From the NCBI GenBank assembly GCA_016844745.1, contig JAERMQ010000018.1:15629-79628 (forward strand): a stretch of DNA of 64,000 bases. The letters are read 5' to 3'. Shown piece after piece: positions 11,220 to 54,374 of this stretch. Under the pieces are notes generated by a model. The model searched no databases. It was not told the DNA's origin and saw only the letters and a list, made by a program, of their open reading frames with translations. The stretch is from Ignavibacteria bacterium. GTDB taxonomy: Bacteria; Bacteroidota; Ignavibacteria; Kapaibacteriales; UBA2268. Position numbers and translations under genes: made by a program. Position 1 is the first letter of the stretch, and the number at the start of each line of letters is the position of its first letter.

Positions 11220-11221
11220 AA

Positions 11222-22225: not shown

Positions 22226-22260
22226 AAAATTTAGTAATTAGTAATTAGTAATTAGTAATT
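22226..22260. repeat. heptanucleotide tandem repeat (TAATTAG) x4
   Basis: Read directly in the sequence. Confidence 0.8.
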
Positions 22261-22280
22261 CTTTCATTAACCATTGACCA

Positions 22281-23576: not shown

Positions 23577-23640
23577 GTTTCGATTCTTAATAATGATAAA
23601 TTGTTAATATGACAATAACATGGACTCATAGAAGCTCAAT

Positions 23641-23950
23641 CAAAAATTAAGAAGAAAGTCATTCTGAATCCCAAAATAATGTAACTAATAAAAATATGCA
23701 ATAACAAATTCAAGAGAAACCCCCTAACCCCCTTTGAAAAAGGGGGAATTTATTATTCTTTTCTACTTCTATATTCTATTTCCATGTTCTACTTCTATAA
23801 CCGGGGGTTAGGGGGTTTCTCAATGTTGAAATTGTTGCCATTATTTTGAATCAAGAAAAATCTGTCATTGGTAACGAAGTGAAGAATCAATAAGCGATAT
23901 TGGGACTGGATTCTTCACTTCGTTACCAATGACATTCTTCCATATTGTCA
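23641..23950. mobile_element. composite MITE-like palindromic element (AATGTCATTCTGAA terminus + CCCTAACCC/GGGTTAGGG hairpin + GAAGTGAAGAATC nested palindrome)
   Basis: About 85% identical to the element at 57866-58135. Nested inverted repeats read directly. Confidence 0.6.
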
Positions 23951-23994
23951 TTTTCATTCATTTTCTTTAGCTGTAATGACAAAATTATTTTCAA

Positions 23995-24672: not shown

Positions 24673-24699
24673 TACAAAGATATTTTTTTCAACTCAATC

Positions 24700-24895
24700 A
24701 AGATGATTGAGCTAAAATTTTTTTCGATATTAAAAGAATGACAATCATCCGTTCAATCAAGATGATTGAACTACTAATTTATTAATATTAAAAGTAGGAC
24801 AATCATCCCTGATTGTCAAATCATCCCTGATTGTCAAATCATCCCTGATTGTCAAATCATCCCTGATTGTCAAATCATCCCTGATTGAAATTAGT
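24700..24895. repeat. tandem repeat array: 2 x ~55-bp units containing palindrome TCAATCAAGATGATTGA, then 4.5 x 18-bp GTCAAATCATCCCTGATT
   Basis: Read directly. Lies between two minus-strand genes. Confidence 0.8.
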
Positions 24896-25651
24896 CTATT
24901 TTATTATATAAAAACTCATGGAAACCGGCATTCCGTCAAACTCCGTTAAGATATAATAAACGCCGGATGATAAATCGCTTATGTCCAGATTAAATTCATT
25001 CGAAGTTATTGCAATATCTTTGCAAAGACTGCCATCCAATGCTAAAATTCTAAAATATTTCGGTAATGATGCAGATAACCTAACTGCAAGTTCACGATTA
25101 TTACGAACATCAATCGATATTGGAATCATTCTGTTTTCGGTTACATCGGAAGTTTTCGCAAGGAAGAAATAGGCGCCTTTTGCTAATTCGGATACTTGAA
25201 TTACAACATTGTTCTCATCCAATGTATGCAATAAATTTCCAGGCCAGCAACCGCCCGCACCTTGCGAACCTAATTGGTCTATATCAAAGACTTTGCCGCA
25301 ATTATTGCATCTTAAATTAGTGCCGCTTTGAGAGTACCCCTTATGATAAGGGTAACATACGTCACAAGCATTGAAACATGATTTGATATCGCCATTCGAA
25401 GCTTTTACCAAAATGTATTCCAAATCCTTGTATTGAGAGGGGGATGTTTTGTAAGCATATGAATAATGTTTTGCTGTTGTCGTTACATCCGATGCAGGTT
25501 GAGTGGCTACTTGGGCTATTGCTTTATTAGATTGTCCCAAGAGAGTCATTATTAGCAGAACAAAAATGGTTCTGCTAATAGCATTAAATAGAGCATTTTT
25601 AGTGTGTATGGTCAAAAATATTTGACCAAATATTGTAGGTGTATCTTTCAT
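24896..25651 (-). CDS. Cys-rich secreted protein with T9SS C-terminal domain
   Basis: CxxC pairs ('CFNACDVCYP', 'CNNCGKVF') and C-terminal 'GVYYILTEFDGMPVSMSFYIIK'. Confidence 0.4.
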   Translation of the reverse strand: MKDTPTIFGQIFLTIHTKNALFNAISRTIFVLLIMTLLGQSNKAIAQVATQPASDVTTTAKHYSYAYKTSPSQYKDLEYILVKASNGDIKSCFNACDVCYPYHKGYSQSGTNLRCNNCGKVFDIDQLGSQGAGGCWPGNLLHTLDENNVVIQVSELAKGAYFFLAKTSDVTENRMIPISIDVRNNRELAVRLSASLPKYFRILALDGSLCKDIAITSNEFNLDISDLSSGVYYILTEFDGMPVSMSFYIIK

Positions 25652-25758
25652 TTTATTTTACTCCTAAATTATAAAAAAACTATTATACAATTAACTTATT
25701 AAAATAAATAAAATATTTTAATTTTCCAAACAATAAAGTTAGTTTTAATTAAATAATT

Positions 25759-27324
25759 TTATTTAATACTAAACCCATGTTTTTTTAAATTCTGTTTTGC
25801 CACTTCGAGTGTGACCTCTTTTAATTTCATTTCACACAAAGGGCATTTCCCAGGCTTATCCGAAATAACATTCCAATCCATCGGGTCCTGGAATACTTTG
25901 CCGTCTTTGTTTTTATCAATTCTTTCCAAATCGACTACGCCCTTCCTGACGATTGAACCCTCCGGGGTTCCCGATTGATTTTGCTTATTGCTTGTTTCAC
26001 CTAATGATGACTGACTGCTCTTATTCTTTTCGGGTAATGGGTTTAGGGTATTGGGTTTAGGATTAGGAGGATTGGGTTGGGACTCAACCTTAGCATTTAA
26101 TCCCGCTTCTGTAGGCATACCGGTTTTCAACTGGCTTTCCGAGTCAATCAGATAACCGCCTGTTACTGCTATCTCATCATTCTCATCGATTCCCGACAAT
26201 AGCTGATATTGTGCATTAATTTTCATTCCGATTTTAACTTCCCTCGGTTCGAAAATTCCATCTCCGGTTTTTAGCCAAACGATATTTTTCTTACCTGTAA
26301 ATAAAATCGCATCTGCAGGAACGACCAATCCGGTACCAAAGCTGCGTTCGAAAACAGTTTCCCCGAACATTTGAGGTTTCAATTTTCCATTGAAATTCGA
26401 GAACTCGCATCTTATTTTTATCGTCCTGGTTTGGGCATTTAATACAGGATAAATATACGTTACTTTGCCGGTAAAAATTTCTCCGGGATAAGACTGAATC
26501 GTTAATTTCACCTGACTCCCCAATGATATTGTATTCAAATCCTGCTGATTGATTTCAGCGATATTCCATAGCATGGATAAATCTGCAACATCATAGAGAG
26601 TAGTTCCTTCATTGAAGTACATTCCTTCCTGGACTTTCTTCTCTATTACGATGCCGGAAATAGGGGAGTGGTACTTGATTGTTAATTGTGCTTCCTTAGC
26701 TTGTTCCAACTCTTTAATTTGAGCTTCCGTAAAACCGAAGAGCTTCAATTTTTTTATAGCCGAATTCAAAGTAGTATTCATCCCACTTCCGGAATTCAAA
26801 GCTAAGAGGAAATCGTTTTGAGCCTGAACCAAATCAGGGCTAAATACCTCGAATAAAGGCTGACCGGCATTGATAAAATCACCTGTTTGAGCCACGAGCA
26901 GTTTTTCAATCCTGCCGTTGAATTTGGCAGAAATCACTTTCCTGTTTTGGTCGGCAAAGTCAAGGTAGCTATAAGCAGAAATCCTGTTTTTCAATTCTGC
27001 CTTTTGGATTCGAACAGTTGAAACATTTGCCAGGACAATTTTATTATCGGTCAGCTTGATCTGATTTTTAAGTTTTTCATCCATAGCGCTTTCATCGTCT
27101 GACATTTTGATAAGCTCCATTTCGCAGATGGGGCATACTCCCGGTCTGTCGGATTTTACTTGCGGGTGCATCGTGCATGTCCAGATATCCTTTTTCTCCG
27201 GTTTGGAAAGCTCATGCTGACCATCCTTTTTATGAAAATAGGTGTAATAGACAATGAAAGCACCACCGGCTATTAAAATGATAATCAGGGTGATTATTAA
27301 CAATTTTACTTTTGATTTTTTCAT
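25759..27324 (-). CDS. RND efflux membrane-fusion (periplasmic adaptor) protein, CusB-like, with N- and C-terminal heavy-metal-binding modules
   Basis: HlyD-like body, plus 'CTMHPQVKSDRPGVCPICEMEL' at the N-terminus and 'DKPGKCPLCEMKL' at the C-terminus. Confidence 0.75.
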   Translation of the reverse strand: MKKSKVKLLIITLIIILIAGGAFIVYYTYFHKKDGQHELSKPEKKDIWTCTMHPQVKSDRPGVCPICEMELIKMSDDESAMDEKLKNQIKLTDNKIVLANVSTVRIQKAELKNRISAYSYLDFADQNRKVISAKFNGRIEKLLVAQTGDFINAGQPLFEVFSPDLVQAQNDFLLALNSGSGMNTTLNSAIKKLKLFGFTEAQIKELEQAKEAQLTIKYHSPISGIVIEKKVQEGMYFNEGTTLYDVADLSMLWNIAEINQQDLNTISLGSQVKLTIQSYPGEIFTGKVTYIYPVLNAQTRTIKIRCEFSNFNGKLKPQMFGETVFERSFGTGLVVPADAILFTGKKNIVWLKTGDGIFEPREVKIGMKINAQYQLLSGIDENDEIAVTGGYLIDSESQLKTGMPTEAGLNAKVESQPNPPNPKPNTLNPLPEKNKSSQSSLGETSNKQNQSGTPEGSIVRKGVVDLERIDKNKDGKVFQDPMDWNVISDKPGKCPLCEMKLKEVTLEVAKQNLKKHGFSIK

Positions 27325-27378
27325 TTATTTCCTTATTATTTTGGTTTCTTACATTAATTTTTTTCATTATATAATTGG

Positions 27379-27482
27379 AGAAACCCCCTAACCCGGTTAT
27401 AGAAGTAGAACATAGAAGTAGAACATAGAAGTAGAAAAAAGAATAAGTTCCCCCTTTTTCAAAGGGGGTTAGGGGGTTTTTC
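27379..27482. repeat. CCCTAACCC...GGGTTAGGG hairpin repeat (inverted copy of the 23714-23822 module)
   Basis: The reverse complement of the 23.7-kb copy aligns base for base, including the internal GAAGTAGAACATA tandem motif. Confidence 0.7.
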
Positions 27483-27537
27483 CTTATCTTTGTTATTTTC
27501 AATTGCTTACTATTCCTATTTTAAGAATTTTCAATAT

Positions 27538-28914
27538 TTATTTATTAACTACTCTGCCGACCATCATTTCAATCTCAGCGATTGCCATTTGTTCGTCGGC
27601 TTGTGCCATATAATAATTCATTGATTGCATCAGTAACATTCTGTTTGCATCGATAATCATATTTATACTGGTTTGATTGTTTTGATATTGAGAAATTTGC
27701 GAACTTCTTGCCTGCTCGTAAAGTGGGATTACCTTCCCGGAATAAAGTATAATCAGTTCCCGTGACGTTTTCAACTTTAGCAAAGCTGTTTTAAGCATGA
27801 CATTCATTTCCCTCTGCATATCGTTCTTTTCCGCTTCAATGCTTTGAATATTAGCCAGCAGTTCCTGTTCTTTAGCTTCGTATTTTTCTTTAGTCCAGGG
27901 AGCAAATGGCAGTGTAATCGAAGCCATCAGGCTGTATCCGTAATCCGAACTCCCATCCCATTTACCCATGGATGAACCTGATTTAGCGGTCATGAGCATA
28001 CCCTGAGGCATTCTCATCACCATTGCCTGGAGCATCAGGTCAGGAATTTTGTCCTTGTTATTTGCAATAATCTCGAATTTATTCATTTCTGCCATCGTGT
28101 TCATTTTCTTAAGTGATGGATTATTGCCTGCTAAAATATTTTCCAATTCTTCCTGCTTATACTCAATATGAATGTTCGGTAATGCCTTGGATACCGATAA
28201 TTCCGGCGAATTTAAATCCCTGCCTAACAGCTTATTCATTTTAAATATTTCAGCTTCTTTCTGGTTGGATAAGATTAAAAGCTGGGTTTCATTGAATGCT
28301 ATTTCGCTTTTAATTGTGAAAATATCAGCCGGAGCGCTTTTATTTATTTCAAAAAGATTCGTCAATGAAGTCAGAAGCTGATTCAGCAATACGATGCCTT
28401 CTTGTTGAACCTCGATTTTACGTTCCAACATCCATATATTAAAGAAAATCATTTTAATATTACCTGTCAGATTAACCTTGTAAACATCAATGTTATCCCT
28501 GCTGATTTTAATATTTACTTTTTCTGCATCGGTCATAGCGCCGATTTTGCCTCCCAAATGGAACATCTGGGAAAAAGTTATATTCTGCGAAATAGGCTCA
28601 TTCAGCCAGTTGAGAGTATTGAATGGAACTTGTGATAATTCGAAACCTACGGTCGGAGCAGGATATGAATTTATTGATTTTGCGCGTTCCTCCGATGCTC
28701 TTACCTTTAAATCCAAAGACTTTAAATATGGATTATTGACCAGAGCCTCCTTTATTAGTGAATCCACAGATTGGGAAAAGACATTATTGAAACAGAAAAA
28801 GCATAAAATAATGAGCAAATTCCTAAAAATAGTTTTAACTTTAAAATTCGTAATTCGTAATTCGTAATTCGTAATTAAAAATTTGTAATTCATAATTGAT
28901 AATTCATAATTCAT
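27538..28914 (-). CDS. outer-membrane efflux protein (TolC/CusC-like)
   Basis: TolC-like two-repeat helical/beta architecture. The start was chosen at the ATG 5 nt after the cusA stop. The N-terminal 25 aa are encoded by heptamer repeats. Confidence 0.65.
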   Translation of the reverse strand: MNYELSIMNYKFLITNYELRITNFKVKTIFRNLLIILCFFCFNNVFSQSVDSLIKEALVNNPYLKSLDLKVRASEERAKSINSYPAPTVGFELSQVPFNTLNWLNEPISQNITFSQMFHLGGKIGAMTDAEKVNIKISRDNIDVYKVNLTGNIKMIFFNIWMLERKIEVQQEGIVLLNQLLTSLTNLFEINKSAPADIFTIKSEIAFNETQLLILSNQKEAEIFKMNKLLGRDLNSPELSVSKALPNIHIEYKQEELENILAGNNPSLKKMNTMAEMNKFEIIANNKDKIPDLMLQAMVMRMPQGMLMTAKSGSSMGKWDGSSDYGYSLMASITLPFAPWTKEKYEAKEQELLANIQSIEAEKNDMQREMNVMLKTALLKLKTSRELIILYSGKVIPLYEQARSSQISQYQNNQTSINMIIDANRMLLMQSMNYYMAQADEQMAIAEIEMMVGRVVNK

Positions 28915-28925
28915 AATTTCTATTC
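28845..28925. repeat. heptanucleotide tandem repeats (TAATTCG x4 then TAATTCA/TGATAAT variants)
   Basis: Read directly. Overlaps the first ~25 codons of the TolC-like ORF. Confidence 0.8.
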
Positions 28926-31900
28926 CCCTTCCTTCATCCAGCCTGACATTTTGGATAATTCCAGTTTTCCTTTTTTCAGCGCTCTTTCTTTCATAATAAC
29001 AAAGAGAATAGGAGTTACAACGAGAACATGAATAGCAGAAGTAAGCAAGCCTCCAATCATTGGCGCTGTAAGAGGTTTCATAACATCCGAGCCTGTGCCG
29101 GTTGACCACATAACAGGAACTAATCCAACTATAGCAACGAAAACGGTCATAAGTTTCGGTCTCAATCTCAGGACTGAACCTTCTACGGCAGCTTCGTAAA
29201 TATCTTCTTTTGTAATTTGATGTCTTGCTCCATCCACATGTCCTTTGATTCTTTTGTCTAAAGCTTCGTGAAGGTAAACCACCATCACAACACCGGTTTC
29301 AACAGCAACTCCATATAAAGCAATAAAGCCTACCCAAACAGCGACCGAAAAATTATATCCTAAAATATATATCATGTACATTCCACCGATTAATGCAAAA
29401 GGAACCGACAGCATTACTACTCCGGCTTCTTTATAATCATGCAAGGTGAAAAAGAGCAGAACATAAATTATAAGAAAAACGATAGGCATGATAATTTCAA
29501 TAGTTCGTTGAGCACGCACTTTGCTTTCGTATTGTCCGCTCCACAAATATGTATAACCTGTCGGAAGATTCAGACTATCGGTAATAACTTTCTTTGCATC
29601 TTCCATGACGCTTCCCATATCCCTTCCGCGGGTATTCATAAACACAATCGAGCGGAGCATAGCGCTTTCGCTGTTTATCATAGGAGCGCCGGTCGATACT
29701 GTAATATCTGCTAATTCATATAGCGGCAGGAAAATTTTAGCATTTGTCGATTGCGCTAAAAGACTCGCCGTATTTATATCCGAATTTGATATACTTGAGT
29801 TCTGCTCAGATGAACCCGTCATACTGCTCATGGAACCGGCTCCGGATGATTTTTTAGCTCCGCTGCCCATCGAACTCATCGAAGTAGCAGCCATTCCGGA
29901 TGATGAAGCAACCGGAACAATCAAACTTTTCAAATCTTCTATCGTATTCCGGACATCCCGCTCATATCTCATTCTTACCGGAAACCGCATCCTGCCTTGG
30001 AATACTACGCCAATATTCTCTCCGCCGATAGCCGTCTCAATAATATCCTGAACATCGCTGATATTAATTCCATACCGTGCAATAGATTCCGTCTTTAAAG
30101 CAATATCGAGATAATATCCGCTTTGTGTTCTTTCAGCTACTACATCGGCAGCGCCATGGACGTTTTGCAGTATTCTTTCAGCTTTTATGGCATAATATTC
30201 AAGAGTATCGAGATTGTCGCCGAATATTTTTAATCCGATATCCGTGCGTACTCCGGTTGATAGCATATTTATTCTATTGATTATCGGTTGAGTCCAACCG
30301 TTACGAACACCAGGTATTTGCAGCTTCCTGTCCAATTCTGCAACTATATCGTTTTTCTTAACTCCGGGGCGCCATTGATTCTTCGGTTTTAGTAATATTA
30401 TGGTTTCAATCATGCTAAGTGGTGCATTATCCGTTGCAGTCTCGGCTCTGCCTGCCTTGCCAAGCACATGAGAAACTTCGGGAATACTCATAATGATTTT
30501 ATCCTGAACGAGAAGAATCCTGTTTATCTCGGACATAGAAACGTTTGGCAAGGTAACCGGCATGTAGAGAATAGAGCCTTCATCCAACGGGGGCATAAAT
30601 TCCGAACCGGTTTTCATTATCATAGGTATTGTTATAAGTAATGCTACAACATTTAGAAAAAGAGTAATTTTTCTATGCTTCAGCACCCAATGAATAACCG
30701 GTTCATAGATTTTGATAAAGAACCTTGTTATTGGATTCTTCATTTCGGGGCGGAATTTACCTCTCATCAATAGTGTCATCAGCACCGGAATCAGTGTAAT
30801 TAACACAATCGCTGATGCAGCCAGGGTGAAAGTTTTTGTATAAGCAAGGGGTTTAAATAGTTTTCCTTCTTGTCCGGTTAGAAAAAAGACCGGCAGAAAT
30901 GAAACCAATATAATGAGTTCGGAGAAGAATATTGCCCTGCCGACCTGTTTGGCAGACATAATCGAGATTTTTGTATATTCCTCGCTTGTCAGATGTTCTT
31001 TTTGAGTTAATGCATGAGCTATATTCCGGTAGGCATTCTCGACCATGACAATCGAAGCATCGACTATTACTCCTATCGCCAGAATTATACCTCCCAAACT
31101 CATAATATTAGAAGTAACATTGAAGAGATGCATCAGGATAAAGGCTAATAAAACCGAAATGGGTATTTCGATAATTATACGTAAAATACTTCTGAAATGA
31201 AGAAGGAATAAAGCTACCATAATAGAAACAACGAGCGCTGCTTCCAATAATGCCTGCTCCAGAGTACCAACTGCTTCTTTGATTAAAGTGCTTCTGTCAT
31301 AAGAAGGGATGATATCCACGCCGGGGGGTAATCCCGGTTTTATTTCATTAATTCTTGATTTTACATCATCGATTACCTTACTTGCATTCTCTCCCTGCCT
31401 CATAACGACGATACCTCCGACAACTTGTCCTTTGCCGTTTTTTTCGAGAGAACCGCGCCTGATATCGCCGCCTAATTGTACTTTCGCAATATCTTTCAGC
31501 AGTACCGGAATTCCGTTCGGACCGGCTTTGATTGCAGCATTTTCCAAACTTTCTTTGTCCTGAATATATCCTTGCCCTCTTACGAAATACTCTGCATCAT
31601 TCAATTCCAATAATTTCCCGCCAACCTCATTATTGCTTCGCTGAATTGTATTGACAACATCGGAGGTCGAAACGTTGTAGCTTCTTAGCTTTGAAGGGTC
31701 GATATCAACCTGATATTGCCTTACGTAACCTCCTATGCTTGCTATTTCGGAAACTCCCGGAACGGATACTAATTTATATCTAATAAACCAATCCTGTAGA
31801 GTCCTCAATGTACCTAAATCATATCCTTTGCCTTCGACAGTGTACCAGTAAACATGCCCAACACCGGTTCCGTCCGGTCCTAAAACAGGAGTTACTCCGT

Positions 31901-32267
31901 TCGGGAGCGAAGATGAGATTGTTGCCAATCTTTCCAGCACTCTCGTTCTGGCAAAGTATATATCAACATTATCTTCAAAAATTACGAAAATAAAAGACAT
32001 CCCGAACATTGAAGAAGCCCTGACTGCCTTCACACCGGGCAATCCCTGCAAATTGGTAACTAAGGGATAAGTAACTTGCTGTTCGATTATGTCGGGCGAC
32101 CTTCCCATCCATTCTGTAAATATTATTACCTGATTCTCCGATAGGTCAGGAATTGCATCGATTGGGAGCGTCGCTACCGAATATATGCCAATACCTGTTA
32201 CAACGACATATAATAACAGGACAATGAATCTATTCTGAGCGCTCCATTCGATTAATTTTTCAATCAT
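28920..32267 (-). CDS. cusA: heavy-metal efflux RND pump, CusA/CzcA family
   Basis: 'DAIPDLSENQVIIFTEWMGRSPDIIEQQVTYPL' is diagnostic of the CusA/HME family; 12-TM architecture; 1115 aa. Confidence 0.9.
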   Translation of the reverse strand: MIEKLIEWSAQNRFIVLLLYVVVTGIGIYSVATLPIDAIPDLSENQVIIFTEWMGRSPDIIEQQVTYPLVTNLQGLPGVKAVRASSMFGMSFIFVIFEDNVDIYFARTRVLERLATISSSLPNGVTPVLGPDGTGVGHVYWYTVEGKGYDLGTLRTLQDWFIRYKLVSVPGVSEIASIGGYVRQYQVDIDPSKLRSYNVSTSDVVNTIQRSNNEVGGKLLELNDAEYFVRGQGYIQDKESLENAAIKAGPNGIPVLLKDIAKVQLGGDIRRGSLEKNGKGQVVGGIVVMRQGENASKVIDDVKSRINEIKPGLPPGVDIIPSYDRSTLIKEAVGTLEQALLEAALVVSIMVALFLLHFRSILRIIIEIPISVLLAFILMHLFNVTSNIMSLGGIILAIGVIVDASIVMVENAYRNIAHALTQKEHLTSEEYTKISIMSAKQVGRAIFFSELIILVSFLPVFFLTGQEGKLFKPLAYTKTFTLAASAIVLITLIPVLMTLLMRGKFRPEMKNPITRFFIKIYEPVIHWVLKHRKITLFLNVVALLITIPMIMKTGSEFMPPLDEGSILYMPVTLPNVSMSEINRILLVQDKIIMSIPEVSHVLGKAGRAETATDNAPLSMIETIILLKPKNQWRPGVKKNDIVAELDRKLQIPGVRNGWTQPIINRINMLSTGVRTDIGLKIFGDNLDTLEYYAIKAERILQNVHGAADVVAERTQSGYYLDIALKTESIARYGINISDVQDIIETAIGGENIGVVFQGRMRFPVRMRYERDVRNTIEDLKSLIVPVASSSGMAATSMSSMGSGAKKSSGAGSMSSMTGSSEQNSSISNSDINTASLLAQSTNAKIFLPLYELADITVSTGAPMINSESAMLRSIVFMNTRGRDMGSVMEDAKKVITDSLNLPTGYTYLWSGQYESKVRAQRTIEIIMPIVFLIIYVLLFFTLHDYKEAGVVMLSVPFALIGGMYMIYILGYNFSVAVWVGFIALYGVAVETGVVMVVYLHEALDKRIKGHVDGARHQITKEDIYEAAVEGSVLRLRPKLMTVFVAIVGLVPVMWSTGTGSDVMKPLTAPMIGGLLTSAIHVLVVTPILFVIMKERALKKGKLELSKMSGWMKEGE

Positions 32268-32439
32268 TTTTAACTTTCAATTTATTTTCCATTTTATTTC
32301 AACAAGAGATTCAAAAGCATTAAATTGAGTTCTTATTTATTTTGAATCAGTTTCCTATAAAATCAAATATATAGATTCATAAACAATATCAGCAGACAAC
32401 AAATTTTGAATTTATAGAACTAAATAATTTACCAATTAC

Positions 32440-32826
32440 TTATTTAACATCAATATCATTTTCTTTTAAATTTTTTATTGCCGCTAAATTCTTCACTTTT
32501 TCTAATTCCATACTACAAATAGGACAATTTCCGGGTTTGTCTGAAATTACATTCCAGTGCATCTGGTCTTGATAAACATACCCATCCTTATTAGTGTCAA
32601 TTGCATAGACATCAATTTTTCCTTTTTTGATTAAGGTTGTATCTCCTTCTTTAGCGTCTTTCAGACTATGGTCCGAATGGTCTGAACTCCCGGAGTGACC
32701 TGAGTGGTTTCCATGACCTTTCATACTACAGCACTGAGAATTCAGGCTTGAAATTGATAATGCAAAGATAATGATTATTCCTGCTATCAAAGGAATAATA
32801 ACTTGTTTGAAATCTACTTTGAGCAT
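32440..32826 (-). CDS. periplasmic His-rich metal-binding protein with heavy-metal-binding module (CusF-like chaperone role)
   Basis: Signal/TM, 'HGNHSGHSGSSDHSDHS', and 'HWNVISDKPGNCPICSMEL', the same module found at both ends of the CusB-like protein. Confidence 0.6.
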   Translation of the reverse strand: MLKVDFKQVIIPLIAGIIIIFALSISSLNSQCCSMKGHGNHSGHSGSSDHSDHSLKDAKEGDTTLIKKGKIDVYAIDTNKDGYVYQDQMHWNVISDKPGNCPICSMELEKVKNLAAIKNLKENDIDVK

Positions 32827-32839
32827 TTTGAAATCCTTT

Positions 32840-33496
32840 TTATTTGTTGATAAATATTTGCTTTTCTATCGAAATTGTTGGCGTTTTTAAAATAAGAAAA
32901 TAAACACCTGACGCTAATTCAGAACCATCGAATATAAGAAGATGCTTTCCTTCAATTTGAAGTTCATTAATTAATGATTTGACTAATAATCCTTTCATAT
33001 CGAAAACATTGATAATTACATTCTCACTCACTGGTAAATAATATTTTATCTCTGTATTTGATATAAAAGGATTTGGATTTGCTTGTAATGTTAAACCAAT
33101 AATACCAGAAGCATCATTAACATCGGCTATCGACTTTACCTGAATTTCGATAGGAACTGTTACCGGACCGTGATGTGGGTCGGTAACAATAATATTGGAC
33201 TTATAAGTACCGGATGAAAGTATAGTTGCATCAATCTTTAATACAATAAAAGCAGTGTCATTTATGTTAAGATTGCCGGAGACAGAGTTAAAACTAATCC
33301 AACTTTCGGAAGCGCTGATTTTATAACCCAAATTACCTGAAGGTCCCTGATTTGTTATATGAAAAATCATTGAGCTTTTTTGACCCGCAGGAACCGGAAT
33401 CACTAACTGGTTCGGATGTACGTTCAAACTTGCGAATGCACTTGTTGAGAATAATACAGTAAGTATAATAATTCCCATAAATTTAGCTGACGTCAT
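32840..33496 (-). CDS. secreted beta-sandwich protein with T9SS C-terminal domain
   Basis: Signal peptide; C-terminal 'ANPNPFISNTEIKYYLP...GVYFLILK'. Confidence 0.5.
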   Translation of the reverse strand: MTSAKFMGIIILTVLFSTSAFASLNVHPNQLVIPVPAGQKSSMIFHITNQGPSGNLGYKISASESWISFNSVSGNLNINDTAFIVLKIDATILSSGTYKSNIIVTDPHHGPVTVPIEIQVKSIADVNDASGIIGLTLQANPNPFISNTEIKYYLPVSENVIINVFDMKGLLVKSLINELQIEGKHLLIFDGSELASGVYFLILKTPTISIEKQIFINK

Positions 33497-33539
33497 AATT
33501 CTCCTGTTTTTATTTAAACATATCTACTTTATTATTTTT

Positions 33540-34610
33540 CTATTCGATTTTTAAGGGTAAATACATAGATACTTCTGCTCCTGATTCAATGTTCTTAGCT
33601 TCGACTTTCCCATTATGATATTCCATAATTAATCCTACTATAGCCAGGGAAAGTCCTAATCCCTCAGTATGGTGAAGAATATCATTAACTGTAAATAACT
33701 CAAATATCTGAGGTAAAACTTCTTCTGAGAAACCATTTCCTTTATCCTGAAAACAGAGAATAAAGTAATTACCTTCAATAGTTAAAATCACTTTAATTTC
33801 ACTTCCTTTGTCTGAAAATTTAATAGCATTATTCAAAATACTTTCAATTGAAAAAGCAATCAGGTTTTCATCTATTTCAACATAAATATTTTCAGCGATA
33901 AAATTTTTAGAGATATTTAAAATATTCGAACCATCCAACTCATTGAAATGTATAGTAACGTTATTAACAAAATCATCAAGATTAATTTTAACGGGTGATA
34001 AATTATGTTCCCTGAGTTTTAGTTTAGTAACCATAAGTGCTGTCTCTGAAAATTTGTTTAATCTTTTTGCCGAGTCAAATAAATGCTGTGCAATTTCTTT
34101 ATTATTTGTATTTTCAAGTTCAGTTAGAAGTATATTTGCGAGCCCCATAATACCATTAAGTGGTGTTTTTAATTCATGAGAAATTAAACTTAATATATCG
34201 CTTTTTGATTTACTTAGATGTTCAAGTTTCAAATTCGCATTAGTTAATGCTTCCGTTCTATCAATTACTTTTTGTTCGAGTGTTTTATTAAGTTCATTTA
34301 ATGTATTTTCCGATGATTTTAATTTATATTGCGTTCTATATAAAAATACCATACTGAATAAAAAAGAAATAATCAGAATATATAGTATTCTATGATAAAT
34401 TAGCATTTCAGGTATATTAAAAATTAATAAATCCAAGAAATTCATGTTTTGTGACATTTTGTCCTCAACCATCATCGGTTCAAGGATTGTTGCTAAAATC
34501 CAAACTATAGCCGAAACTAAAAGAATGATGGCTATCGTATTTTCTCTTATTTTTTTAAATTTCATTTTATTTCCTTTTCCTTGAGTTAAGCGTTTTTCTT
34601 GAAGTTCCAC
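33540..34610 (-). CDS. sensor histidine kinase
   Basis: N-terminal TMs, HisKA 'SHELKTPLNGIMG', and an HATPase_c region. Confidence 0.8.
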   Translation of the reverse strand: MELQEKRLTQGKGNKMKFKKIRENTIAIILLVSAIVWILATILEPMMVEDKMSQNMNFLDLLIFNIPEMLIYHRILYILIISFLFSMVFLYRTQYKLKSSENTLNELNKTLEQKVIDRTEALTNANLKLEHLSKSKSDILSLISHELKTPLNGIMGLANILLTELENTNNKEIAQHLFDSAKRLNKFSETALMVTKLKLREHNLSPVKINLDDFVNNVTIHFNELDGSNILNISKNFIAENIYVEIDENLIAFSIESILNNAIKFSDKGSEIKVILTIEGNYFILCFQDKGNGFSEEVLPQIFELFTVNDILHHTEGLGLSLAIVGLIMEYHNGKVEAKNIESGAEVSMYLPLKIE

Positions 34611-34701
34611 CTTGAATCTTCACATATTTCAAGAGTTCCTCTTATCTCAAGGATATATAAACCTGTTGGGTACAAACCGATAAGCAAGTTTATTTAAACA
34701 A

Positions 34702-36192
34702 TTATACCAATTGATATTGTAACATCATGCCATCATCCTCGTGTTCAAGATTGTGGCAATGAAAAACAAATACACCTTTTAATGTTGCAAATGAGATAAT
34801 GATTTTTACTGTTTCACGAGGCAAAACTAAAACGGTATCCTTAAAACCGTTTTCTGAAGCGGTCAACTGTCCCCTTCCTCCGGTTCTTTCCAACACCTGG
34901 AAATTCACTCCGTGCAAATGCATAGGATGAGGTTCATCGCCCTGTGAATTATCAAATACCCATATCTCTGTTGTATTTGCAGAAACAGTTTCATCTATCC
35001 TGTTTTTATCATATATTTTATTATTGATTCTATGAATACCTGTCATATTCATGCCACCGGTCATTTGCGGGGCATTAATAATAAAATTTCTTGTCTTTGA
35101 AGATGATGAAGGTAAAATAGCATTGACAGAAGAAAGCGAAGTCGGTACTTTAAAACTATCACTTACGATTTGTGATACTTTAAACTTCATAATCTTAAAC
35201 GTTTGTTTACCTTGAGCGCTACCACCGTTATCAAATATCCTGTTTTCCAAAAATATCTCTGTACCAGAGGTCAAGCCGGCAAAGTTTACCAGCACATCTA
35301 ATCTTTCTCCGGGAGCTAATAAAATACTTTTTACGGCTATAGGATTTCTTAACAGACCGCCATCATTTCCGATAATTATCATATCAGCATTATTACTTAA
35401 AGCAAGATTATAAATACGGGCATTTGAACCGTTTAATATTCTCAAGCGGTAAAATCTTGTTTCTACTTCACAATAAGGTGAGGCTTCTCCATTTACAATA
35501 ATTGTTTCACCCATATAACCCGACATTATTTCTCCCATAGAAGGATTATATGTAATACCTGATGCTGTAAGCCGCTTGTCCTGTATTACCAAAGGAATTT
35601 CATAATTACCTGACGGCAGATTTAAAGCAGCTTCTTCTGCATCGTTAATGATAAATAAACCTGCTAATCCCTGAAAAGCCTGTCTTGCAGTTGCTCCATC
35701 CGGGTGCGGATGATACCAGCATAGTCCTGCTCTTTGATTAATTATGAATTGGTAATTAAAACTACCTCCGGGATTTATAACAGCTTCCGGATGTCCATCC
35801 ATATTGGCAGGAATTTTTAATCCATGCCAGTGGATATTACTTTTTTCAGAAAGATTATTCTGAAAATTGATATTGGCATTAATTCCATTATTAACACGAA
35901 TTGTAGGTCCCAATATACCGTTTGCCTGGTAACCAAATACTGATTTATTGCTGCCATTAATATTTGCAGTTGTTGCCTGGGCTGTTAATGTTGTATTACC
36001 TGTTACTGTGTTTGGAATGGGGAGTAGCCTGCTGAAATTCCCTTCTGTTACAGGAACCGGTTGACTCCCCATATTCATATCACCGTTGTTCATCACGTTG
36101 CCGCATGATTCTAAAAAAGTGAACATAGAACTACCCACTAATACACTGCCTGCTCCCAGACCTGTGTTTTTTATAAATTCTCTTCGTTTCAT
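34702..36192 (-). CDS. multicopper oxidase (CueO/CopA-like), Tat-exported
   Basis: 'RREFIKNTGLGAGSV' Tat signal. 'HWHGL', 'HPMHLHG' and 'HCHNLEHEDDGMM' are the copper-ligand motifs. Confidence 0.85.
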   Translation of the reverse strand: MKRREFIKNTGLGAGSVLVGSSMFTFLESCGNVMNNGDMNMGSQPVPVTEGNFSRLLPIPNTVTGNTTLTAQATTANINGSNKSVFGYQANGILGPTIRVNNGINANINFQNNLSEKSNIHWHGLKIPANMDGHPEAVINPGGSFNYQFIINQRAGLCWYHPHPDGATARQAFQGLAGLFIINDAEEAALNLPSGNYEIPLVIQDKRLTASGITYNPSMGEIMSGYMGETIIVNGEASPYCEVETRFYRLRILNGSNARIYNLALSNNADMIIIGNDGGLLRNPIAVKSILLAPGERLDVLVNFAGLTSGTEIFLENRIFDNGGSAQGKQTFKIMKFKVSQIVSDSFKVPTSLSSVNAILPSSSSKTRNFIINAPQMTGGMNMTGIHRINNKIYDKNRIDETVSANTTEIWVFDNSQGDEPHPMHLHGVNFQVLERTGGRGQLTASENGFKDTVLVLPRETVKIIISFATLKGVFVFHCHNLEHEDDGMMLQYQLV

Positions 36193-45143: not shown

Positions 45144-48100
45144 CTATTTCCTGAAATAATTTGTCTTAAAATACAGAACAAATGAAGATATGAAAAATGT
45201 TAGTATAAAGATTGAAATAAGAATCAGAATATCAATCTCAAGGACAAAAGGAAAATATCCATGCTGCAGCAGCTTTCCGGATTTATCAAAAGTGGGGAAG
45301 TAGCAAGGATAAATCATATTGTAATAGGGGACAATAAACTTATGAAATGGGGATTCAAAATCGACGGTTTTTGAAACCAGATTTACCATAGATTCCAATG
45401 ACCATCGAGATATCGTACAATCCGATATAACCCTCAGGAAATGGTTCATTGAACCAATATGCTTAAAAATACCGGCAAAGATTATCTGAGGAATTAAAAT
45501 TAATGGTAAAAAAGAAATTGCAAATTCAATACTGCTTGCTAAAGAAGAAATACAAAGCCCTATTCCTCCTGCTATAACTGATGTAAGGAGAAGAATTAAA
45601 AAAATATAAATAATATCAGCGGGAAGCATTGGAATAAATAAAAAAAGAACAATTAAAAAAGTTATGATTTGCAGAACCGAAATAATGACTAATGAAACAA
45701 ATTTCGAGCTTATATAATTCATAACCTTGAGTGTATATCTATGTTCCCTGATGAAAATAGCTCTTTCAATCACAACATCTTTTACAGAGTTAGTCATACC
45801 TATCCAAATAAAAGATAAAATCATAATAAACAAAAGGTAGAGCAATTTCTGGGCATGCTCTTTATAACCTGTATCTCCGGTGAAGATGATTTTTTTCTGA
45901 TATGAACCATCGAACCATGAGTATTTCTTATTCTCGACTGTATATTGATATTTTTTAATTTGATTGAAAAATTTATTTTTATCAAATATAGGATTCGTGA
46001 AAGCCAGCACCGAAGACTTTCCGAATAATTTGTATTGCCTGAATAATGAGTCATCCTCTTGAGATTTTTTTCTTCTGTCAGGGAGTATTTTTTCCGTCCA
46101 TAATTTTACTTTCTGGGAATCTTCCAGGGCGTTCCAATCATTGACCGAAACTTGCTTATCGGGGTAATTCAAAATATAATAGAAGCTATTTGTTTTGTTT
46201 TGCGGGGAAAGTTTCATTAAATCAATTAACTTTTCCTTGCCAAGTTGCTTCTCGGAGATTACTAATTTATAATTTCCTGCTTTGATTGGAAAGTAGAGTT
46301 CATTGCCTGATTCCAGTTCCTGTTTGGATATTTGATAAGGTCCGATAACAGAATAATAATTTGAGTCGGGATTGTCGGTCGCCGAAGATTGAGAATATAA
46401 AAACAGGGTTTTTGAAGTCAGGTTCCCGATTTTAATATCTTTGCTGAAAGGCGGCAGATACCTTGAGGTTGATGGTCTGGAATAATTTTCAAGTCTTACA
46501 AATTCTTCTTCCGGCTTAAGGTCGGCGAACCGGCTGCCGTCCTGAATAATTCCGGAAAAAATCATACCTAAGAATAGAGCTATAATTGGAGCCTGAAATA
46601 TCAACAGGAATAATGTAATGATATTATTGAATTTCAACTTAAAATTTCTGAAAATCAAAGTTTTAATTTGGGTAATATTCGAAAATTTTTCAAAAACCGG
46701 TTTTACGATTTGAGCCGCTAAATTTGCAATCGATTGAGCTAATTTCTGGTGCGGATGATGAATATAAAACTCATAAGATTCGGATTCAAGGTACTGTTTT
46801 TTCCAATATTCCGGTGGCTGCGATTCCAATGCTTCCAAAATATAAACAGCAGGATTCATATTTGCATCATATTTAATATTGGAATTTTTTTCAAAAAAAT
46901 CTACCGAACGTTTCACAGAGCCAAAATATGCAATTTCACCTTTTTTTGTCAGGATTAGTATTTTATGGAATTTGCTGAAGATTTTTTTCGAAGGTTGGTG
47001 TATAGTTAAAAAAATTGTATTCCCTACATTACTGATTTTAGTAAGCAGATTGATTAACTTTTCGGAATCGGCAGAAGAAAGTCCGGAAGTAGGTTCGTCT
47101 AAAAATAAAATCGATGGGTCGCTCAATAGCTCTATAGCCAAGTTCACTCTTTTTCTTTGACCGCCCGATAAAGCCCCCCGCTTATTCATATCGCCAATTT
47201 TTTTATTTTTTATTTGAAATGAATAAGTGCCGTCTTCGTGCAATTCAGAGAGGTCAAGGCTGATTAGAACATTATCGATAACAGATTCAATATTATGGGT
47301 AGTCAGGTGTGGTAATCTTAGTTTAGCAGCATATATCAGGCACTGTTCAACAGTTAAATCAGGAAAGAGGATATCGTCCTGAGGCAGATAGGCGGTCGAA
47401 AACCTGAAATGGTAGGGATTTTTTGTAATATTGATGTTATTATACAATAAATTCCCACTAATAGATTTATCATTGATTTTATCCACACCTGATAGAATTT
47501 TCAACAAAGTTGATTTGCCTGCTCCACTTGGACCCATTATTCCAACTATTTCTCCTGCGCCGACAGAGAGCGAAATATTATTTAATAATGGAATCGTATG
47601 CCATGAAAAAGGAAATTTGAAATTTTTGATTTTCTTTGAAATATTTAATGCGTCTAACCTGATTTTTCCTTTTATGTGTTGAATATGGATTATCGCTTTT
47701 TCTTCTTTAAGATTGATGGTCAAAATAAAATCACCGAATATCACCGGTTGATTGTAAGAAATCTCGGCTTCCTTTATTTTTTTATTATCAAGGAAAGTTC
47801 CGTAATAAGAATCGCAATCTTCAATACGAAAATTATCGTTATCGAGTTTTCTTATTTGAATATGTTTGTAAGAAATTTTTTCACTAATCAGCACAATATC
47901 ACAATTGGACTGCCCGATAGTTACTTCTTCTTTGCTGAAATCATCGAAAACAAATTCAAGTGGAAATTTCTCAGTTACAAAAAAAGTGTCGTTATCTTTA
48001 AGGAAATCCGGAATAAGGCTTAAATCTAATTTCACATCTTCGATAACTATACTGTCGTTTTCATCTATTAATTTATAATCACCTAAGGAAAGTTTGAATC

Positions 48101-48653
48101 CGTTGATAAATATTGGAACTGGGCTTCTATAACTATTGACAAACCGGGGATAGCTACAGAAAAAATTCCCTTTGCAATTAATAATAGATGCATAAATTTC
48201 TTTTTTATTTAGTTCGGGAAGAATAATTTCGGAATCCTGGGAATTACCAACTTTGAATTCTTCCGATATATCGAAATCAATTATTAAATTGATTTTAACA
48301 TCTAAATTAAAAAGAGGAGCAATTTTAGGATGATTAAAGTCTAAAATGATATCTTTTATTTTGACCCAATCGGCAATAGAAATGATTTCCTTTTTAGTAA
48401 CAATCCTTCTATTGGTTTCAATATCATGGGAATTTTCGTCTAAATTAATAAGTTCATATTGTTGACTTTCAGGGTTATACGTTATAACGGCAGCAAATTC
48501 GGGGATATCCTGCCTGTTAATTTTAATATTACAATAACCTGAACTTCCAATCCAGGTGGTAAAAGTCTCATTGAAATATTGCAGTTTACAATGAGGACAT
48601 TTTTTACTTACGATATGCTCAATTGTTTCATGGCATTTCGGACAAACAAACAT
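45144..48653 (-). CDS. zinc-ribbon + FHA-domain + ABC ATPase + ABC-2 permease fusion (Rv1747-like FHA-regulated ABC exporter)
   Basis: 'CPKCH...CPHC' ribbon; canonical FHA ('GQSNCDIVL...HIQI...GTFLDN'); Walker A 'GPSGAGKST', 'LSGGQRKR' and 'LFLDEPTSGL'; C-terminal 6-TM ABC-2 domain. Confidence 0.75.
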   Translation of the reverse strand: MFVCPKCHETIEHIVSKKCPHCKLQYFNETFTTWIGSSGYCNIKINRQDIPEFAAVITYNPESQQYELINLDENSHDIETNRRIVTKKEIISIADWVKIKDIILDFNHPKIAPLFNLDVKINLIIDFDISEEFKVGNSQDSEIILPELNKKEIYASIINCKGNFFCSYPRFVNSYRSPVPIFINGFKLSLGDYKLIDENDSIVIEDVKLDLSLIPDFLKDNDTFFVTEKFPLEFVFDDFSKEEVTIGQSNCDIVLISEKISYKHIQIRKLDNDNFRIEDCDSYYGTFLDNKKIKEAEISYNQPVIFGDFILTINLKEEKAIIHIQHIKGKIRLDALNISKKIKNFKFPFSWHTIPLLNNISLSVGAGEIVGIMGPSGAGKSTLLKILSGVDKINDKSISGNLLYNNINITKNPYHFRFSTAYLPQDDILFPDLTVEQCLIYAAKLRLPHLTTHNIESVIDNVLISLDLSELHEDGTYSFQIKNKKIGDMNKRGALSGGQRKRVNLAIELLSDPSILFLDEPTSGLSSADSEKLINLLTKISNVGNTIFLTIHQPSKKIFSKFHKILILTKKGEIAYFGSVKRSVDFFEKNSNIKYDANMNPAVYILEALESQPPEYWKKQYLESESYEFYIHHPHQKLAQSIANLAAQIVKPVFEKFSNITQIKTLIFRNFKLKFNNIITLFLLIFQAPIIALFLGMIFSGIIQDGSRFADLKPEEEFVRLENYSRPSTSRYLPPFSKDIKIGNLTSKTLFLYSQSSATDNPDSNYYSVIGPYQISKQELESGNELYFPIKAGNYKLVISEKQLGKEKLIDLMKLSPQNKTNSFYYILNYPDKQVSVNDWNALEDSQKVKLWTEKILPDRRKKSQEDDSLFRQYKLFGKSSVLAFTNPIFDKNKFFNQIKKYQYTVENKKYSWFDGSYQKKIIFTGDTGYKEHAQKLLYLLFIMILSFIWIGMTNSVKDVVIERAIFIREHRYTLKVMNYISSKFVSLVIISVLQIITFLIVLFLFIPMLPADIIYIFLILLLTSVIAGGIGLCISSLASSIEFAISFLPLILIPQIIFAGIFKHIGSMNHFLRVISDCTISRWSLESMVNLVSKTVDFESPFHKFIVPYYNMIYPCYFPTFDKSGKLLQHGYFPFVLEIDILILISIFILTFFISSFVLYFKTNYFRK

Positions 48654-49637: not shown

Positions 49638-50051
49638 TTACTTCAGAATCTCAATCCAATTAGCTGCGCTTTCGCCCGATGCTTCAATAGCCTTTTTTAA
49701 TTTATCCTTGAATTTCCAGCATGTCATCTGTCGCAGTGAAAGCCGTCTTGCAAACTCATAAGAAGAAATTTCATCATTGCCTTTGCATACGCTATAAGCA
49801 ATATAGAAAGCCTTACTAATCGAAAATCTGCAATGATGGAAAATTGTACCGGCAGTTGCCGACTCTTCCTTTTTGCATTTGGTACACCTTCTTGAGAAAT
49901 GAGTTTTCCCAGGGCAGCTATTTGTGTTGCCGCATTTTTTGCAAGTAAATCCGGCTGACCACTTCAAATCAGCCAAAAATTCATAACATGCCAAATCGCT
50001 TGTAAACAGGCTTTCTATTTGAGCTTGAGTTAATTCTTTATAAAATATCAT
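49638..50051 (-). CDS. IS1595-family transposase, N-terminal zinc-ribbon/HTH fragment only (no DDE domain)
   Basis: 'CKKCGNT...CPGKTHFSRRCTKCKKEESATAGTIFHHCRFSISKAF' matches the IS1595 N-terminal domain. Truncated at 137 aa. Confidence 0.6.
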   Translation of the reverse strand: MIFYKELTQAQIESLFTSDLACYEFLADLKWSAGFTCKKCGNTNSCPGKTHFSRRCTKCKKEESATAGTIFHHCRFSISKAFYIAYSVCKGNDEISSYEFARRLSLRQMTCWKFKDKLKKAIEASGESAANWIEILK

Positions 50052-51454: not shown

Positions 51455-52456
51455 TTATTTTACGATTTCATAGTTCTGACATTCAGACTCTTTCCAGGCA
51501 GATTTATTCTTAGCAATCATTGCATCATAGAATAATGCGTTACCGCCATAAGATATAGATTTTATATCATATCCCATTACTTTAAGGAATGCTGTAGCAT
51601 ATCCGGCAGTATGACCGGTATAGCAATAGATTGCACAGGTTTTATTTGTTGGGATTGTCTTCAAGAAATTAGCTAATTTAAAATCGGATTTTGGCACATA
51701 ATTAATTGCTCCCTGCAAATGACCGGGGTCTTTATAATCGGCAACCGTCCAATAAGCCATAATAAAATAATTGGCTAAATTACCAATAACGACATCTTGC
51801 TTGACTGATGGAAATCCGTCAATGAAAAGCTGTGCAATCCTTGCATCTAAGATTTCCTTGCCGATTGCTTTTCCTGTACTTAATGTTGGTAGCGAACCTA
51901 AAGCGGGTTTTGGAATTGAATCCTGCTTTAAATATGCCTGTCCGCCATTACCTACACCATTTGTCCATGTAGCTTTAAAATCCGAATGCCAGGAAGCCAT
52001 GCCGAACTTCATGCTGAATACATTTCCATATCCGGATAATCTGAGCAAACATGTAGAATAAGCAGCAGATTGACCTGAAAAACAGACCATATAAACTTTG
52101 GTATATTTTGTCATATCATTTGCCTTAAAATAATTCAGGATTTCTTTAAATTGAACATTTATAGCTCCTGCAATATGTCCTTTTGCGAAGGTTGCCGTAT
52201 CGCGAATATCCATTACGAAGTACTTCGCAGGGTCGGCAGTTATGTTTTGCTTGACTTCGGTAGTCGGCGCAATATTACTGCCGGTTACGTTAATATAGTC
52301 TCCGCCTGTACTTTCGAGATACTGGACAAGTATCTCGGATTCATTTACCTTTGTAGGTTCAGTTGAATTATCATCGCTGCAACCGATGAACATGAATACT
52401 ACCAACGAGAATAATAAAGCTAATAAAGCTTTTCGGTCATTAATTTTACAAATCAT
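51455..52456 (-). CDS. tandem rhodanese-domain sulfurtransferase lipoprotein
   Basis: Two rhodanese-like halves with Cys loops ('CFSGQSAAY' and 'CYTGHTAGY'); 'FIGC' lipobox. Confidence 0.65.
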   Translation of the reverse strand: MICKINDRKALLALLFSLVVFMFIGCSDDNSTEPTKVNESEILVQYLESTGGDYINVTGSNIAPTTEVKQNITADPAKYFVMDIRDTATFAKGHIAGAINVQFKEILNYFKANDMTKYTKVYMVCFSGQSAAYSTCLLRLSGYGNVFSMKFGMASWHSDFKATWTNGVGNGGQAYLKQDSIPKPALGSLPTLSTGKAIGKEILDARIAQLFIDGFPSVKQDVVIGNLANYFIMAYWTVADYKDPGHLQGAINYVPKSDFKLANFLKTIPTNKTCAIYCYTGHTAGYATAFLKVMGYDIKSISYGGNALFYDAMIAKNKSAWKESECQNYEIVK

Positions 52457-52536
52457 AAAATCTCCATATTTAAATTTAACATATATTGTGTATTAGAAAT
52501 TACTTATGTAAATACAACAAGTAATTCATAAATTTT

Positions 52537-53844
52537 CTATTTCAACCAACTTTGTGGTAATTTATCATCTACAGCAATTTTATTAGATGATGATTTTTCC
52601 CAATCAAATTTAAAATCAGACTGGAATAAATAGAATTGTTTGTTCCTAAATTCATTTCCATCATTAATAATATGACAAGCATCGTAACAGGGTTTTCCAT
52701 TCGCAACCTTTGTTCTGTCTGTCCATTTTAAAGTATTATGAGGTGTTGCATAATTATAAACAGGCAATGCATCGAAATTTGGTAAATTCGGTACACCATA
52801 CAGCACCCAGCTATCGGGAGCCATTAGAGTATGCCTAACTAAAGCAAATTTAAATTCCGGTTTGGCGTCCGGTATTGGATTCAATGCAATTTTAAAATCC
52901 TGATAAGATGCAATTCTGGCGCCATCTCCATTTATATGGCAGCTTCCGCAATTATTATAAGCCTGCGAATGGCAGGTATTGCAGCTAAATGAATTATAGT
53001 GTATTGAATGATACTGATTTTTTGACTCCAAGCCGGTATGACAATTCTTACACTTTGGCAGGTGCTCATACTTATATCTTTGTTCGATAAATTTCCCGGA
53101 GCCATGAATTTCATCTTTAGTATGGCAACTGACGCAGGTAAAGCCCGATTTACTTAAATGAACATCCGGCTGTGTCCCCGATGCCACTCCGAGAAATGCA
53201 TGTCCTCCCCGGGAAGTATGGCAACCGACACAGGTGTTAATCATATCCGGTTTCCCTGAAAAATCGTGACCATTCATAAGTCCGCCGCCTTGCGCTTTTG
53301 GTCTGTTCACATGACAATCGCCACAAGTAGATGCATGGCATTTCGCGCAGTTATATTCATATCCGTCTTTTACTTTCTGGGGAAGCTGCGTGAATTCAGT
53401 CGCATCCTTTAATCCCATCCTTAAGCAGACTTTTCTCTTTTGCCCCCAACCCATTTGATGAAGACTGTTGCTGTGGTTAAGAACTGCCGATTCATGGCAG
53501 CTTTTGCACTTTTCGGAGGCGAAATCTTTAGTCGGATGAGCAAGGAAATTTCCACTGTGGGCTTTATTCTTATCATCTGTGTTGCCAATACCATTATGAC
53601 ATCCAACGCAACCTATGGGATAATGCTTTGATTTTTTGAAAGACTCGTAGCCTACACCGCTAATAAAAACCCTGTCGAATGGTTCGTAATGAGGAGTTTC
53701 ACCACCACAGCTCGACCCTCCGCTACCGGTATCGGGGGTAAATACCTGCTTTAGGTGTGCATAATTAGTATGGCAGCCTTCACATGAAGCAACGGTCTTA
53801 TTATCGGGTTCTACAGGATTACCTGAATTGTTGCATCCTACCAA
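52537..53844 (-). CDS. multiheme c-type cytochrome (~10 CxxCH), lipoprotein; annotated from a TTG start because of an upstream in-frame TAA
   Basis: Ten or more CxxCH motifs. In the same frame upstream: ATG(53889)...TAA(53862-53860)...'LLILFLVGC'. Confidence 0.7.
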   Translation of the reverse strand: MVGCNNSGNPVEPDNKTVASCEGCHTNYAHLKQVFTPDTGSGGSSCGGETPHYEPFDRVFISGVGYESFKKSKHYPIGCVGCHNGIGNTDDKNKAHSGNFLAHPTKDFASEKCKSCHESAVLNHSNSLHQMGWGQKRKVCLRMGLKDATEFTQLPQKVKDGYEYNCAKCHASTCGDCHVNRPKAQGGGLMNGHDFSGKPDMINTCVGCHTSRGGHAFLGVASGTQPDVHLSKSGFTCVSCHTKDEIHGSGKFIEQRYKYEHLPKCKNCHTGLESKNQYHSIHYNSFSCNTCHSQAYNNCGSCHINGDGARIASYQDFKIALNPIPDAKPEFKFALVRHTLMAPDSWVLYGVPNLPNFDALPVYNYATPHNTLKWTDRTKVANGKPCYDACHIINDGNEFRNKQFYLFQSDFKFDWEKSSSNKIAVDDKLPQSWLK

Positions 53845-53903
53845 AAAAAGAATAAGTAATTAAATACTAAGAATTGATAGATTTTTCATTTAAACACCTA
53901 AAT

Positions 53904-54374
53904 TTAATTAATATGGTTCCTTGACCACGCAGTAAGGGAGTTCAATAGTTCTTCTATTGCCACCAATACCGAATCCCTCGCTTCCAATGGTATATGTTCT
54001 AATACTTTTTCATGTAATAACACATGCTGTTCGATTACTTGCTTTATAAATGGCTGCGCAGTTTCCGTGAGCCTGACTTTGATATTTCGTCTGTCGTTTA
54101 AATCTATTTCTCTTGAGATATAATTTTTCTTTTCCAATGAAGTTATAATTTGAGTTATCCTGCCGGAAGTTAATCCCATAATTTTTGCCAATTCTTTTAC
54201 GGAAAACAGGCATTCACAATCCAAAAACCTCATGCAGCGAAACTCGGCATTTGTCAATCCAAACAGTTTTGTGAAATATTGTTCCTTATCTTCACAGGCA
54301 CGAGCTAACAAAAATGTCAATTGAGCGAGTTTTGCAGCTTGTGCTAGCCTTTTTTCTTTTTTTTCTTTAGTCAT
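53904..54374 (-). CDS. MarR-family transcriptional regulator
   Basis: Winged-helix 'LTSGRITQIITSLEKKNYISR'. Confidence 0.75.
   Translation of the reverse strand: MTKEKKEKRLAQAAKLAQLTFLLARACEDKEQYFTKLFGLTNAEFRCMRFLDCECLFSVKELAKIMGLTSGRITQIITSLEKKNYISREIDLNDRRNIKVRLTETAQPFIKQVIEQHVLLHEKVLEHIPLEARDSVLVAIEELLNSLTAWSRNHIN

Follow-up and report, generated by a model that had tools for sequence, protein, structure and literature searches.

What is an in-frame TAA doing inside the signal peptide of a multi-heme cytochrome c, and can the gene that carries it still yield a working protein? The locus lies on the minus strand of the window, by which we mean the whole stretch of 64,000 nucleotides that was analyzed, from an Ignavibacteria MAG. 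Reading from 53889, the letters are ATG (53889-53887) AAA AAT CTA TCA ATT CTT AGT ATT, then TAA (53862-53860), then TTA CTT ATT CTT TTT TTG GTA GGA TGC AAC AAT, in which the cysteine codon occupies 53835-53833. Translation from that ATG gives MKNLSILSI*LLILFLVGCNNSG, with the frame unbroken after the TAA up to the stop at 52537-52539, and the interrupted product begins MKNLSILSI*LLILFLVGCNN. Re-reading the letters confirmed the original prediction that the ATG at 53889 opens MKNLSILSI, that the TAA at 53862-53860 comes next, and that the same frame runs on into the cytochrome. The parts of the gene are as follows.

53895 to 53899, minus strand: Shine-Dalgarno-like AGGTG, 5 nt upstream of the ATG at 53889
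53863 to 53889, minus strand: MKNLSILSI, the first nine leader codons, which cover the n-region (K2) and the start of the h-region; a mini-ORF of nine codons as written
53860 to 53862, minus strand: TAA, leader codon 10, position -9 from the lipobox Cys
53833 to 53859, minus strand: LLILFLVGC, the second leader half, holding the remaining h-region and the lipobox L-V-G-C
52537 to 53832, minus strand: mature multi-heme c-type cytochrome, 431 amino acids after the Cys plus the stop, with no further lesion

The elements of a lipoprotein signal peptide of the signal peptidase II type are found on both sides of the stop. A charged n-region, M-K-N (K2), is present at the ATG at 53889, and the uncharged hydrophobic h-region, LSILSI-x-LLILF, is followed by L-V-G-C, which matches the lipobox pattern [LVI][ASTVI][GAS]C. 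The second leader half also holds a run of seven T residues (53843-53849) and the annotated TTG start (53844-53842). Leader and mature cytochrome are nonetheless not in one uninterrupted ORF, as the TAA stands at codon 10. A chance test covered every stop codon in the window, in all six frames (n = 7,603), with an N-half filter that called for an ATG, a K or R, and uncharged hydrophobic sequence in the nine-codon stretch upstream of the stop. Six stops passed this filter, two of them with internal stops, and a single stop of the 7,603, the one at 53862, had signal-peptide halves on both sides, with a downstream hydrophobic stretch and [GAS]-Cys. The position of the TAA inside signal-peptide-like sequence is not a matter of chance. 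A frameshift was considered as the cause of the interruption and rejected, since the reading frame of the ATG is sound both before and after the TAA and the other two upstream frames are full of stops.

Orthologs show what the leader looks like when it is whole. We fetched 164 orthologous loci and translated them upstream of the first heme motif, and wherever upstream DNA was available the leader is unbroken, with one exception, designated L035. Among about 128 distinct loci, the leader is built of a Met, a K or R, a hydrophobic stretch, and the lipobox Cys. The distance from Met to Cys is 16 to 34 amino acids in the 128 nonredundant loci (median, 22), and the rebuilt window leader, at 19 amino acids with the lipobox LVGC, falls within that range. 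The 26 homologs that were read directly open with M-K/R, a hydrophobic stretch, and [GSNA]-Cys, bar one shorter call that starts within the h-region. An alignment of 75 sequences showed the lipobox Cys, ten CXXCH motifs, one CX3CH motif, and a further cysteine, Cys43, to be invariant, and the window protein retains every residue that is invariant in that alignment. The original prediction had described the leader without its TAA as an ideal lipoprotein signal, a view backed by uninterrupted leaders both in the 75 aligned homologs and in the approximately 128 distinct loci. It had also named orthologs as a check on whether the gene might start downstream with a different signal peptide, and none of them does. 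Because the orthologs keep an uninterrupted leader and the invariant Cys, the comparison of sequences indicates that the TAA falls at codon 10 of what was ancestrally a whole lipoprotein signal peptide. Relative to intact orthologs, a disabling lesion is thus present, as it is in a pseudogene. The ancestral codon was most likely TTA (Leu), converted by a T-to-A change on the minus strand at 53861, because Leu is by far the commonest residue at position -9 among those that lie one substitution from TAA (among the 128 orthologs, L in 28, S in 3, Y in 1, and Q, K, or E in none).

The gene encodes a 10- or 11-heme lipoprotein cytochrome c, a member of a large uncharacterized family. We counted ten CXXCH motifs, in keeping with the roughly ten hemes first estimated, as well as one conserved CX3CH motif (CYDACH), and the additional invariant Cys43 lies outside any heme motif. 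Protein searching returned 947 homologs (E ≤ 1e-3), the nearest of which are 74 to 79% identical and about 450 amino acids long, or 15 to 20 amino acids longer than the 435-amino-acid ORF available in the window. The family occurs in Ignavibacteria, Kapabacteria, and Bacteroidales. Searching the PDB by sequence gave no homolog of the cytochrome, and NCBIfam holds no model for the family. Pfam matches were marginal, with Cytochrome_C7 barely over its cut-off and the MtrC/MtrF domain PF22113 below threshold (20.5 bits against a cut-off of 30). An AlphaFold model (pLDDT, 79; pTM, 0.80) yielded a sole structural match with Foldseek, to the octaheme tetrathionate reductase 1sp3 (prob, 0.72; TM, 0.23; E = 0.039; 19% identity). 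A literature search returned nothing on the cytochrome family, on sequencing run SRR13434397, or on the MAG, and PMC8258643 could not be linked to the MAG.

The genes on either side are both intact and on the same strand.

53904 to 54374, minus strand: MarR-family regulator gene, intact, immediately upstream (Pfam MarR, E = 1.4e-12)
51455 to 52456, minus strand: double-rhodanese lipoprotein gene, intact, immediately downstream (Pfam Rhodanese in two stretches)

From the stop codon of the MarR gene (53906-53904) to the ATG at 53889 is 14 nt, and the same spacing is found in the ortholog L003. MarR lies upstream in 7 of 143 family loci, the closest relatives L001 to L004 among them. The downstream arrangement is far more regular: of the orthologous loci with sufficient flanking DNA, all 139 have a double-rhodanese lipoprotein gene immediately after the cytochrome gene and on its strand. 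The rhodanese gene is an obligate partner of the cytochrome. A link of the cytochrome to sulfur compounds would be plausible on the strength of the rhodanese partner and the invariant Cys outside the heme motifs, and the pair (51455-53889, minus strand) could be an uncharacterized periplasmic sulfur-compound redox module. Some JGI records label the cytochrome itself as "thiosulfate/3-mercaptopyruvate sulfurtransferase." Two genes downstream of the operon, a 137-amino-acid ORF (49638-50051, minus strand) contains only the zinc-ribbon domain of an IS1595-type transposase and may be a mobile-element remnant.

We then consider what could be made from the gene as written. The ATG at 53889 has AGGTG placed before it, and 27 of the 50 gene starts in the window have a purine-rich motif of this kind ahead of them, at 3 to 16 nt and mostly at 4 to 9 nt. 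The longest conventional ORF starts instead at the TTG at 53844, runs for 435 amino acids from MVGC, and is identical to the GenBank protein annotated for the MAG, HW421_1553. That the ORF track can start the gene only at this TTG, with no signal peptide, had been said at the outset and proved right. One might suppose from the GenBank annotation that the gene works from a start downstream of the TAA, whether the TTG or a noncanonical codon, with a shorter or different route of export, and we give this almost no credence. The MVGC product, which is the only one to reach the heme domain, has neither an n-region nor an h-region, and as written the gene lacks the export signal of a multi-heme c-type cytochrome. 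A start at the ATT at 53853 would leave about five hydrophobic residues, against family leaders of 16 to 34 amino acids. An SD-like motif was searched for upstream of the TTG at 53844 and not found, and none of the orthologs begins in this way. Heme attachment to c-type cytochromes and the acylation of lipoproteins both occur after export, beyond the cytoplasmic membrane. Because the restart at TTG has no export signal and both of these steps depend on export, the gene as written is predicted to be null.

The ribosome might, on the other hand, pass the TAA. Programmed or leaky readthrough, or local recoding, would yield some full-length preprotein and might serve to keep expression low, and a circumstantial point in its favor is that the frame is maintained across the stop, with the two halves together making a normal leader. 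The codon itself, however, is the commonest terminator in the window, ending 34 of 50 genes, 13 of them in the same TAA-T context as the leader stop. Among the termination signals of E. coli, UAA-U is the most efficient and the least leaky. Not one of the approximately 128 distinct orthologous loci has a stop at the position of the window TAA, and the only other interrupted leader, that of L035, is cut at another codon and appears to stem from an error. A search for RNA structure at and after the TAA gave a 121-nt fold no better than shuffled sequences (z = +1.0), no Rfam element was detected near the TAA, and none of the other approximately 50 genes in the window has an in-frame stop. Reassignment of TAA was rejected on these counts of terminators and in-frame stops, and a suppressor tRNA was rejected as well, the only tRNA in the window being tRNA-Pro.

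Readthrough was one of three options in the original prediction, along with a sequencing error and a fresh nonsense mutation; the latter two are both live, and readthrough is disfavored because TAA-T is a normal context of the commonest terminator, the stop is unconserved, and no stimulatory structure accompanies it. We hold it to be extremely doubtful that the TAA is decoded to give full-length preprotein, and the specific case of a genuine TAA that is read through at a low level or conditionally suppressed is barely conceivable. Were that case true, this would be a lipoprotein signal peptide with a functional, regulated stop that throttles a costly 10- or 11-heme cytochrome. Recoding of the TAA is very unlikely, so that this is not a new kind of genetic decoding, and any functional bypass of the stop, by whatever means, is at most very improbable.

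There remain a real mutation and an error in the assembly. An error in the consensus or base call of the MAG would mean that the true codon is a sense codon, probably TTA, and that the cytochrome is an ordinary, intact, exported lipoprotein. We regard this as a serious possibility, somewhat short of an even chance. Several observations are in line with it: the 435 downstream codons are flawless, all invariant residues are kept, and the operon partner is intact. The TAA lies, moreover, in a low-complexity stretch of about 23% GC beside the T7 run, and short-read coverage tends to be poor in AT-rich stretches beside T runs. Logan contig L165, from an independent assembly, breaks off at 53833, only 27 nt past the TAA, and a break so close by suggests that this place is poorly covered or heterogeneous. 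There is also a precedent for an erroneous TAA in the leader of this very family. The ortholog L035, from a public TPA MAG, reads ATG AGA TAA within positions 193 to 204, where L094, a contig 99.2% identical to it, reads ATG AGA AAA (2953-2964). The two differ at 32 positions, about two-thirds of which are A/T transversions, and coverage of L035 is 5.7x. Because of this low coverage and the excess of A/T transversions relative to L094, the TAA in L035 looks like an assembly error.

An error load like that of L035 was not seen in the window assembly where it could be checked. The independent Logan contigs L165 and L166, from run SRR13434397, agree with the window at 4,087 of 4,087 positions, with no mismatches. 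Their junction, at 51281/51286, leaves a gap of 4 nt and does not coincide with the strain SNPs of an ENA contig (assembly ERZ27247315). That contig, from a 99.8%-identical strain, differs from the window by three SNPs, two of them transitions and one a transversion. The window contains no Ns and no other split gene among its approximately 50 genes; two same-frame neighbor pairs are distinct genes, and an overlap of CusA with OEP results from an over-extended GTG start. An assembly that is error-ridden in general was rejected for this window on the grounds that there is no other broken gene in 64 kb and no mismatch to the Logan contigs. Since the assembly is otherwise clean where it was checked, a random consensus error exactly at the TAA would be rare a priori.

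We looked widely for a second copy of the site. Exact look-ups of the 435-amino-acid product and of the MarR protein gave no independent copy, nor did an exact DNA pattern with NNN at the stop run against metagenome and genome collections, nor did cluster look-ups. Protein-guided locus searches gave no copy of the site either, the best relatives being 74 to 76% identical. Searching by way of the rhodanese gene and the thioredoxin-like neighbors found Logan and ENA contigs, all of which stop short of the TAA, and protein searches for same-species fragments with the N-terminus alone and with MarR found none.

Taking these lines together, we put at about even the chance that the TAA is a genuine nonsense allele of very recent origin, which would be fixed or the majority variant in the sampled population, and this is slightly favored over a consensus error. 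In favor of a real allele, the lesion is a single, isolated point change, and young single-lesion pseudogenes are common in bacterial genomes. Against a real allele stand the lack of any other decay in the gene and the intact state of the partner rhodanese gene, and a base-call error would look the same. If the allele is real, one substitution, most likely TTA (Leu) to TAA, would have created a stop at codon 10 of a 19-residue signal peptide, and the gene would be a newborn pseudogene. Ribosomes would start at the ATG at 53889, make MKNLSILSI, and terminate at a strong UAA-U. Any re-initiation at the TTG at 53844 would give MVGC and what follows without an export signal, and with heme attachment and acylation lying outside the cytoplasmic membrane, no functional protein would be expected.

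In practical terms, the GenBank model (435 amino acids, from TTG, beginning MVGC) should be flagged as disrupted or mis-called, and anyone who reconstructs the metabolism of this Ignavibacteria MAG should not count on a functional copy of the cytochrome before the reads are checked. The strict pairing with rhodanese, at 139 of 139 loci, may be worth more than the stop codon.

The window holds several other gene groups. A molybdopterin oxidoreductase catalytic subunit (14178-17057, minus strand) combines a twin-arginine signal (SRRSFIKTSAL) with a type IX secretion sorting domain (Por_Secre_tail) at its C-terminus, and from its sequence it is apparently a Tat-exported molybdoenzyme bound for the cell surface by the T9SS, an unusual combination. 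A 4Fe-4S subunit (13360-14151) and a NarJ-like chaperone (12716-13363) follow it. Directly downstream of this operon is a Moco riboswitch (12602-12720, minus strand; Rfam RF01055, 80 bits), and downstream of the riboswitch are moaA-like, MOSC, and moeA genes (9436-12226). A copper-handling cluster (21583-36192, minus strand) comprises a CueP-like protein, a CusB-like HlyD protein with heavy-metal-binding domains, an outer-membrane efflux protein, a CusA-like RND pump, an HMBD protein, a histidine kinase, and a multicopper oxidase, and several proteins neighboring it carry T9SS sorting domains. At 45144-48653 (minus strand), a protein of 1,169 amino acids fuses an FHA domain, an ABC ATPase, and an ABC-2 permease.

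Set beside known systems, the locus shares with programmed readthrough and reassignment an in-frame stop that is flanked on either side by sequence that looks coding. It differs from them in that the stop is unconserved and lies in a strong UAA-U context, that no stimulatory structure goes with it, and that TAA is a normal stop here. The cytochrome resembles the decaheme, lipobox-anchored MtrC and OmcA of Shewanella in its approximately ten CXXCH hemes, its N-terminal lipobox Cys, and export before heme attachment. It departs from MtrC and OmcA in that its match to PF22113 is sub-threshold, that a PDB search by sequence finds no homolog of it, and that the strict genomic partner of its family is a rhodanese gene, not a porin. 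Octaheme tetrathionate reductase, Otr (1sp3), is the sole Foldseek match of the AlphaFold model, but the similarity is very weak and the heme count differs, and we do not claim membership.

A newborn pseudogene and a one-base MAG error are both routine. Like the MAG consensus error seen on comparing L035 with L094, the window has a TAA in the AT-rich leader of this cytochrome family, and in the L035 case a near-identical assembly has a sense codon; L035, however, is a 5.7x contig riddled with A/T transversions, whereas the window is clean where it can be checked. Young bacterial nonsense pseudogenes are the other comparison. The window gene differs from them in being only a candidate pseudogene, and it is like them in having one early premature stop, intact orthologs, an otherwise undecayed ORF, and intact neighbors.
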